Source of the DNA: Escherichia coli
Lineage (GTDB): Bacteria; Pseudomonadota; Gammaproteobacteria; Enterobacterales; Enterobacteriaceae
DNA length: 4,124 bases
Assembly (NCBI RefSeq): GCF_003334785.1
Contig: NZ_QOWV01000049.1
Reading direction: 5' to 3' (one strand)
Each line of letters opens with the position of its first letter. Position 1 is the first letter of the stretch. Under the pieces are notes generated by a model. The model worked only from the letters and a program-made list of their open reading frames with translations. It was not told where the DNA came from and did not search any database. Shown piece after piece: positions 3,772 through 4,124 of the stretch. Made by a program: the position numbers and the translations under genes.

Positions 3772-3805
3772 CAACAAAAAGAGCAGGAAATCCCACACCT
3801 GCTCT
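3772..3805 (-). terminator. Hairpin oriented as a rho-independent terminator for a minus-strand transcript (possibly bidirectional, also ending hha)
   Basis: Stem AGAGCAGG (3780-3787) / CCTGCTCT (3798-3805), 10-nt loop. On the minus strand the stem is followed by TTTTTGT (complement of 3773-3779). On the plus strand it is preceded by an A-run and followed by CATTCC, so it is not canonical for plus. Confidence 0.4.
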
Positions 3806-3976
3806 CATTCCTGAATAAACATATCCAATATATTCCAATGCGAAGAAATAATCTCCGTAGAAACACCCATGAGAAAAATATCATATGGGAGAAAATCGCA
3901 ATTATCACAGCCAGTGCATTCATTATTTTCGCTGTGCTCTGGCATTAATTATTTTCAACATAAAAAGGAAAAAATA

Positions 3977-4087
3977 ATGAATCTGGTAGACGCCTTTGTC
4001 AAAAAAGTAATATCCGGGCCATATAAAGAATATGGAAAATGGTGGATTGAACCGCCCCGGGTTTCCTGGAGAGTGTTTTATCTGTGA
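3977..4087 (+). CDS. Small hypothetical ORF (36 aa); uncertain
   Basis: ATG 3977 with SD-like AAGGAA (3965-3970, 6-nt spacer); MNLVDAFVKKVISGPYKEYGKWWIEPPRVSWRVFYL*; stop TGA 4085-4087. The 72-aa version in the ORF track (start 3869) has no RBS. It competes with a minus-strand partial ORF at 4002-4124. Confidence 0.2.
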   Translation: MNLVDAFVKKVISGPYKEYGKWWIEPPRVSWRVFYL

Positions 4088-4124
4088 ACTCAGGCTGCCA
4101 GATCATCGTTTCCGATGGAAGCAT

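Follow-up and report, generated by a model that had tools for sequence, protein, structure and literature searches.

The window, that is, the whole 4,124-nucleotide stretch of DNA analysed here, is the complete contig QOWV01000049.1 of the draft assembly GCA_003334785.1 (Escherichia coli), and the region studied within it is, as judged by comparison with related sequences, made up of the tail of a mobile hha cassette, two small genes that belong to the IncI plasmid backbone and lie on the plus strand, and one terminus of an insertion sequence (IS), without any minus-strand gene. At its 3' end the cassette carries a hairpin that has a U-tract on the minus strand only, and we lean towards reading it as a direction-biased intrinsic terminator, which would halt minus-strand read-through. 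In the initial annotation this hairpin was a puzzle, a terminator without a clear gene of its own; the puzzle dissolves since the IS end, a 58-aa gene truncated by the IS and a plus-strand ORF of 36 aa can now be recognised. By its sequence the locus is mostly ordinary, an already-sequenced plasmid backbone broken by an IS, and what is new in it is only mildly so: the 36-aa ORF, which is unannotated in the RefSeq records examined, and a terminator that possibly works in one direction.

Sequences retrieved for comparison are designated by L numbers, pESBL-EA11 being L008. Window positions 1627-4047 have 99.3-99.5% identity to the stretch of traY (3' part), excA, hha and a gene annotated as 'hypothetical' in IncI1, I-gamma, K, and Z plasmids, and positions 133-1700 correspond to the stretch of traF and a histidine-phosphatase gene in similar plasmids, minus ~612 bp, which are absent from the left part of the window in comparison with similar deletion plasmids, e.g., p2-Ec-BERN-042. 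In this left part, the 3' end of traF (1-475) precedes a gene of the histidine-phosphatase family (535-1119), and a remnant after that gene meets the 3' part of traY at ~1627; traH to traX and the 5' part of traY are missing. For positions 1-132 there was no match among the retrieved sequences. Other short contigs (L010-L013) share identical parts with the window, and sister contigs branch off its sequence at 79-92 and at 328. Since the match from traF to traY is interrupted by missing stretches, we regard the contig as what deletions have left of an IncI transfer region; the window, on this evidence, represents one complete short contig of an IncI-type plasmid region in decay. The same traY'-excA-hha stretch, with the TAG codon in hha described below, was found on a metagenomic scaffold (L009, 1-3310) beside another IS and the type VI secretion genes VipA/VipB, a context which hints at a chromosome or a large composite plasmid as the possible location of the remnant.

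The terminator-like feature occupies 3771-3805 on the minus strand. Its arms, 3780-3787 (AGAGCAGG) and 3798-3805 (CCTGCTCT), were found by a repeat search to be 100% complementary with 10 nt between them (loop 3788-3797), giving a stem of eight perfect pairs, five of which are G-C. The minus strand reads 5'-CCTGCTCT TTTTGTTGG, with a T-run, TTTTTGTTGG, of seven T in eight positions directly 3' of the stem; this run is at plus coordinates 3779-3771, and the plus strand has none behind the stem, its tail there being TCATTCCTG. The folding energy was -12.3 kcal/mol (z -4.15) for the plus-strand RNA of the hairpin and -18.3 kcal/mol (z -3.4; 0 of 200 shuffles as good) for the minus-strand RNA with flanks, and a consensus scan gave a terminator-like site at the hairpin on the minus strand only. 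Arms, loop, T-run and scan thus all agree with the initial annotation, which had placed a hairpin with a minus-strand U-tract at 3780-3805. The probability of a chance occurrence was estimated by first-order Markov simulation for a perfect stem of at least 8 bp, a loop of 3-10 nt and at least five T in eight; such a combination arose in 0.13% of random 425-nt regions and in 2.6% of random 4124-nt windows, and the hairpin is the sole site in the window having these properties.

The hairpin shares with intrinsic terminators a stable, GC-rich stem-loop with an immediately adjacent U-rich tract in minus orientation, and differs from them in its loop, which at 10 nt is larger than usual, and in that no minus-strand gene, annotated or conserved, has its end there; upstream of it on that strand there is neither a conserved gene nor a conserved promoter, so it closes no defined transcription unit. 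Bidirectional terminators have an A-tract/hairpin/U-tract layout, with a U-tract on both strands, whereas the U-tract of the window hairpin is on one strand only. The likeness to terminators between convergent genes is one of position, since the hairpin lies between plus-strand hha and either minus-strand dqlB (in intact plasmids) or the IS transposase (here). The variants seen among the copies are a loop change, A3788G, in L001 and L003 and G3781T in L007 and pESBL-EA11, which destroys the basal G-C pair. No compensatory stem changes were seen in the alignment, in which the diversity of the cassette is shallow and too shallow for a covariation test, and selection on the hairpin structure is not demonstrated by it because the basal pair is lost without compensation in pESBL-EA11 and L007.

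The gene preceding the hairpin is hha (Hha/YmoA family, 3560-3753, plus strand), which scored 94 bits against NCBIfam NF008191 (cut-off, 90) and is annotated as hha in L001, L002, and pESBL-EA11. It has been shortened to 64 codons by a TGG to TAG change at 3751-3753, the codon being TGG in the aligned intact plasmids; the ancestral stop, TAA at 3766-3768, is 12 nt upstream of the hairpin. This nonsense change strips the last five residues of the protein (64 aa versus 69), and an identical 64-aa Hha is recorded in at least 24 contigs. One of these is the scaffold L009, in which the homology to an intact 58-aa gene seems to run past the IS site, so that this copy seems to be without the IS.

Alignment of the window, L001-L003, and L007 with an hha-less plasmid (L004) gave approximate limits of 3534-3831 for the hha cassette: hha-less IncI plasmids such as L004 align with the window to ~3533 and resume at ~3831, at the start of the 36-aa ORF, and hha-less plasmids match L002 only from its position 4337, which is equivalent to window position 3836. 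The cassette of roughly 300 bp, including the hairpin, was found in ~300 PLSDB records at 95% identity or more. When the hairpin was sought beside diverged hha genes, the matches were confined to the coding part and homology ended at the hha stop codon. These alignments assign the hairpin to the swappable hha cassette, as its 3' end, and not to the module of small genes that follows. In L004, the hha slot (window ~3534-3831) is filled by an alternative cassette (L004 1041-1250) with a 69-aa minus-strand gene that would need a promoter close to the conserved region of the 36-aa ORF or within it; the label 'HEAT repeat domain-containing protein' for its product has very weak grounds (PADLOC E 0.005; no match in NCBIfam). 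A paper on hha of pO157_Sal was set aside as a source for this locus, since it concerns a different plasmid.

The first of the two small plus-strand genes is a conserved ORF of 36 aa at 3838-3948 (MRRNNLRRNTHEKNIIWEKIAIITASAFIIFAVLWH), which was not among the candidates of the initial annotation. The predicted product has a basic N-terminus and one hydrophobic helix and is probably a small membrane protein. The RefSeq records examined leave this ORF unannotated, some gene callers predict it as hypothetical, and no Shine-Dalgarno (SD) sequence precedes it in any copy. It directly follows the upstream unit in every context. In the diverged module copies, which are located after the thermonuclease gene nuc (L005, L006) or on metagenomic contigs (L020, L022), the ORF also has exactly 36 codons, encoding MKKKTISKKINGKNTVWEKIAIFTAALFLIFAVCWS and close variants with the same C-terminal half. 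Differences between copies are distributed over the three codon positions as 11/12/22, respectively. This excess at third positions cannot pick the strand, because a minus-strand ORF of 57 aa (3923-3750) has the same third positions as the plus-strand 36-aa ORF, and the strand was chosen instead by conservation of start and stop codons and by substitution scores. Among the ORFs compared, only the plus-strand 36-aa ORF keeps both its start and its stop, and BLOSUM62 scores over the well-aligned half were 85 for its frame, the best of the six, 51 for the minus-strand 57-aa ORF and 26 for a minus-strand 46-aa ORF (3945-3805). None of these three ORFs had a match in NCBIfam, Pfam, PHROGs or PADLOC.

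The counterpart of the 36-aa ORF in pESBL-EA11 is Hp28, which has the same position, between hha and Hp27, and has its first 26 residues counted from the ATG at 3838 (MRRNNLRR...IAIITAS) in common with it. Hp28 differs in being 47 aa long with another C-terminus, through a 26-nt deletion and an upstream ATG, whereas the 36-aa form of the window is intact. This stretch of pESBL-EA11 is NC_018659.1 81,133-81,276, equivalent to window 3811-3980. The 26-nt deletion occurs also in L007, Hp28 retains a hydrophobic stretch, and current RefSeq has dropped the hp28 annotation. Between the two small genes there is a 12-nt AT-rich inverted repeat (3944-3955 and 3971-3982, 92% complementary), which pairs the stop region of the 36-aa ORF to the ATG that starts the 58-aa gene. 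This repeat, which is not visible in the diverged copy, might couple the translation of the two genes.

The second small gene is represented in the window by a 5' fragment, codons 1-24 at 3977-4047 on the plus strand, preceded by the SD sequence AGGA at 3966-3969. The initial annotation had proposed a 36-aa ORF at 3977-4087 with this SD, and both coordinates and SD are right; it is not a gene of its own, consisting of the first 24 codons of the 58-aa gene, which the IS cuts within codon 24, and of 12 residues from the IS end, in which the fusion terminates at 4087. Its ATG at 3977 is an internal start of a listed ORF at 3869-4087. Homology to intact plasmids ends at 4047-4050. The intact gene (177 bp, 58 aa) is present in L001, L002, L004-L007, and pESBL-EA11 (e.g., WP_001054904.1, L002 4478-4654), where Hp27 of pESBL-EA11 is this gene. 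The intact protein matched phrog_8110 with E 9e-20 over residues 1-57 of 59, which was its only match among NCBIfam, Pfam, PHROGs, and PADLOC, and since the window keeps codons 1-24 only and not the full length of the family, its copy is a truncated phrog_8110 member or a pseudogene. In a comparison of the plasmid gene with the diverged plasmid copy in L005, the differences by codon position were 6/7/26, with dN 0.10, dS 2.1, and dN/dS of ~0.05. Conservation of the small ORFs in related copies, which had been proposed as a check, upheld the 58-aa gene, cut here, and the plus-strand 36-aa ORF, but neither the 46-aa nor the 57-aa minus-strand ORF.

Homologues of the 58-aa protein with 38-54% identity are encoded by Aeromonas, Pseudomonas, and Bacteroides phages. 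In Pseudomonas phage AH02 (L019 1073-1377), a 43-aa hydrophobic ORF precedes the homologue and overlaps its start by ATGA, a pair that echoes the pair of 36-aa and 58-aa genes on the plasmids. Upstream of the homologue are an annotated endolysin in Aeromonas phage 4L372XY (L017) and, in Aeromonas phage PhAER-4 (L018), a gene about as large whose annotation says no more than hypothetical. A sequence search of the PDB with the 58-aa protein gave no match. A structure model from eight sequences (pLDDT 89.6) is a small beta-barrel, and its fold matches to eS28, Mop, and OB-like proteins are weak (E >= 0.15).

In intact plasmids, a hairpin stands to the right of the 58-aa gene, and beyond it come dqlB, a convergent gene for a DinQ-like toxin, and an sRNA of AgrB type (Rfam, 57 bits); this Rfam match falls outside the part homologous to the window. 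In L002 (4660-5160), dqlB and the AgrB-like sRNA contain a direct repeat that gives complementarity between dqlB and AgrB. The 3' hairpin of dqlB has the tail UUUAAC with a short U-run (UUU), and both hairpin and tail are homologous to those of chromosomal dinQ.

The window closes with the right end of an IS3-family element (4048-4124, minus strand), whose terminal inverted repeat starts as TGAACCGCCCCGG at 4048 and which includes the 3' end of the transposase gene orfB, reading ...ASIGNDDLAA on the minus strand with its stop at 4092-4090. The 77 bp of the element in the window are identical at 76 positions to the end of an element annotated as 'IS3 family transposase' in pUMNF18_IncI1 (L003 3001-4311), which is 1311 bp when complete and has TGAACCGCCCCGG inverted repeats at both ends, orfA and orfB, and an annotated frameshift pseudoknot. 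The whole element is present in the longer sister contigs L010 and L011, and orfB of L010 scored 314 bits on NCBIfam transpos_IS3 (cut-off, 160), so that both a homologous transposase and terminal inverted repeats beginning with TG, as in IS3-family elements, were found. Presumably the element belongs near the IS629/IS1203 group, which its ends resemble. Thousands of database records match 4048-4124, and it is because the IS is a repeat that the contig ends inside it. A GAT adjoins the IS end, which is consistent with a 3-bp target duplication, and a single junction is seen in the window and the sister contigs. In L021 (1440-1700), there is a related element of the IS3 family whose end sequence differs slightly; it sits in opposite orientation against that same GAT in the 58-aa gene, which suggests independent insertions at one site and a possible hot spot. 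No tRNA or tmRNA was found at the IS-like end. The transposase is read on the minus strand toward the hairpin, which is 243 bp away.

On the reading towards which we lean, a plus-strand polymerase leaving hha would meet a hairpin without a U-tract and mostly read on, and in plasmids of the hha type hha, the 36-aa ORF, and the 58-aa gene would form a single plus-strand transcript. Since no plus-strand promoter-like site was found in 3400-4124, where the excA terminator is at 3482-3501, neither the 36-aa nor the 58-aa gene has such a site to itself, and read-through from hha is the proposed source of their transcripts. A minus-strand polymerase would meet the hairpin followed by UUUUUGUUGG and stop, and this stopping would shield hha, excA, and the tra genes from antisense transcription. 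The minus-strand polymerase would come by read-through from convergent dqlB in intact plasmids, some of which is plausible given the few U residues behind the 3' hairpin of dqlB, as behind that of chromosomal dinQ, and by read-out from the IS transposase in this contig. A search of published work on IncI1 transcript maps gave no strand-specific data for this locus, and we infer which transcripts would end at the hairpin and that plus-strand transcripts would pass beyond it. It counts against this reading that a 10-nt loop is on the large side for efficient termination, and that the own 3' hairpin of dqlB may halt most transcripts ahead of the window hairpin. Furthermore, insulation is not a general need of the small-gene module, since L005, L006, and L004 are without an equivalent minus-strand terminator.

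The main rival, which we consider unlikely on balance, takes the hairpin as a stem-loop at the 3' end of hha mRNA, where it would either stabilise the message or terminate plus-strand transcription weakly or with the help of a factor; the A-run before it, which on the minus strand reads as the U-tract, would then have no function, and minus-strand transcription would be insignificant. The position of the hairpin only 12 nt past the ancestral hha stop and its travelling with hha as one cassette argue for this, as do the minus strand, which has no conserved promoter or gene, and the plus-strand tail of pESBL-EA11 and L007 (CTTATTCAT), which is richer in U. The corresponding tail in the window (UCAUUCCUG), however, is poor and no plus-strand terminator was called there by the consensus scan; moreover, a stop of plus-strand transcription at the hairpin would leave the 36-aa and 58-aa genes without a visible promoter, and a run of T in seven of eight positions exactly at the stem on the other strand rarely arises by chance.

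[quoted passage not shown] In type I TA loci with overlapping antisense RNA (ibs/Sib), a small hydrophobic ORF likewise has an opposite-strand terminator just past its 5' end, and the 36-aa ORF, with its one hydrophobic helix, is by sequence a candidate toxin. A validated type I system, dqlB/agrB (dinQ-like; PMC12365149), adjoins the 36-aa ORF in intact plasmids and is itself outside the window. A Tn-seq study of pESBL-EA11 (Yamaichi et al., 2014) placed hp28 (P 0.76) and hha (P 0.59) in the class 'essential for maintenance', a call for which the authors had no explanation, suggesting that the sequences are perhaps non-coding (PMC4288162).

The better of the two promoter-like sites, TTGACA-17-CATTAT at 4002-3974, matches at 10 of 12 positions and is present in the window, L001, and L002, but its -10 element is CATTGT in L003, L004, L007, and pESBL-EA11 and the site is absent in L005; the second site is GTGATA-17-TATGAT at 3908-3880. 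Such sites are no commoner than in shuffled sequence (3 found versus 1.7 +/- 1.4 expected). The 36-aa ORF is present without a minus-strand terminator upstream of it in L004, L005, and L006, and no conserved minus-strand promoters or terminators were found in the diverged module copies (L005, L006), so the locus differs from type I TA loci in having no antisense promoter and no terminator conserved with the ORF, as well as no family match. The fold of the putative 197-nt minus-strand RNA is unremarkable (z -1.5), and Rfam searches at gathering and permissive thresholds gave nothing in the spacer from hha to dqlB, FinP and STnc150 being at chance level. The GC content of the locus is 33-37%. 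Under-representation of transposon insertions in AT-rich DNA can also stem from occlusion by H-NS. With an unconserved promoter, no terminator belonging to the module, an ordinary fold and no Rfam match, a cis-antisense sRNA is possible but unsupported, and that the 36-aa peptide is a toxin-like small membrane protein held in check by such an RNA ending at the minus-strand terminator has a slim prospect. The proposal of the initial annotation that this may be a small-protein or sRNA locus can accordingly be kept for small proteins, on the plus strand, and not for an sRNA, for which there is no conserved promoter and no Rfam match.

The initial annotation had found no minus-strand ORF convincing, and this judgement is confirmed, since the frames are unconserved and the ORF at the window edge is an IS artefact. 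This partial ORF (4124-3999, 41 aa, open to the edge) exists at the coordinates at which it had been put forward as a candidate; it lies outside the transposase frame and spans the IS boundary, and because 4048-4124 is an IS end, it is a chimeric, wrong-frame product. A protein gene on the minus strand with its end at the hairpin or close by is very hard to credit: the 46-aa ORF (3945-3805), correctly described earlier as lacking an SD and touching the hairpin with its stop, is open in the window and called by some automatic annotations, but has two stops in L005, scores far below the plus frame and has no family match, and the 57-aa ORF (3923-3750), which is also open, hydrophobic, and variable at third positions, has neither an SD nor a conserved start or stop, scores below the plus frame, and passes through the hairpin into hha, with its C-terminal half in the non-conserved cassette.

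For the biology of this plasmid family, the analysis means that a conserved ORF for a probable 36-aa membrane peptide is carried by IncI, IncK, and IncZ resistance plasmids, in a stretch flagged for plasmid maintenance by a transposon screen. The hairpin beside it, if it is the direction-biased terminator that we favour, may be a clean natural one-direction terminator guarding a conjugation operon from convergent transcription. If the reading as a toxin with an antisense RNA were true, it would explain why hha and hp28 were called essential for maintenance in pESBL-EA11 and would mean that the IncI backbone has, beside dqlB/agrB, a type I-like addiction module not described before.
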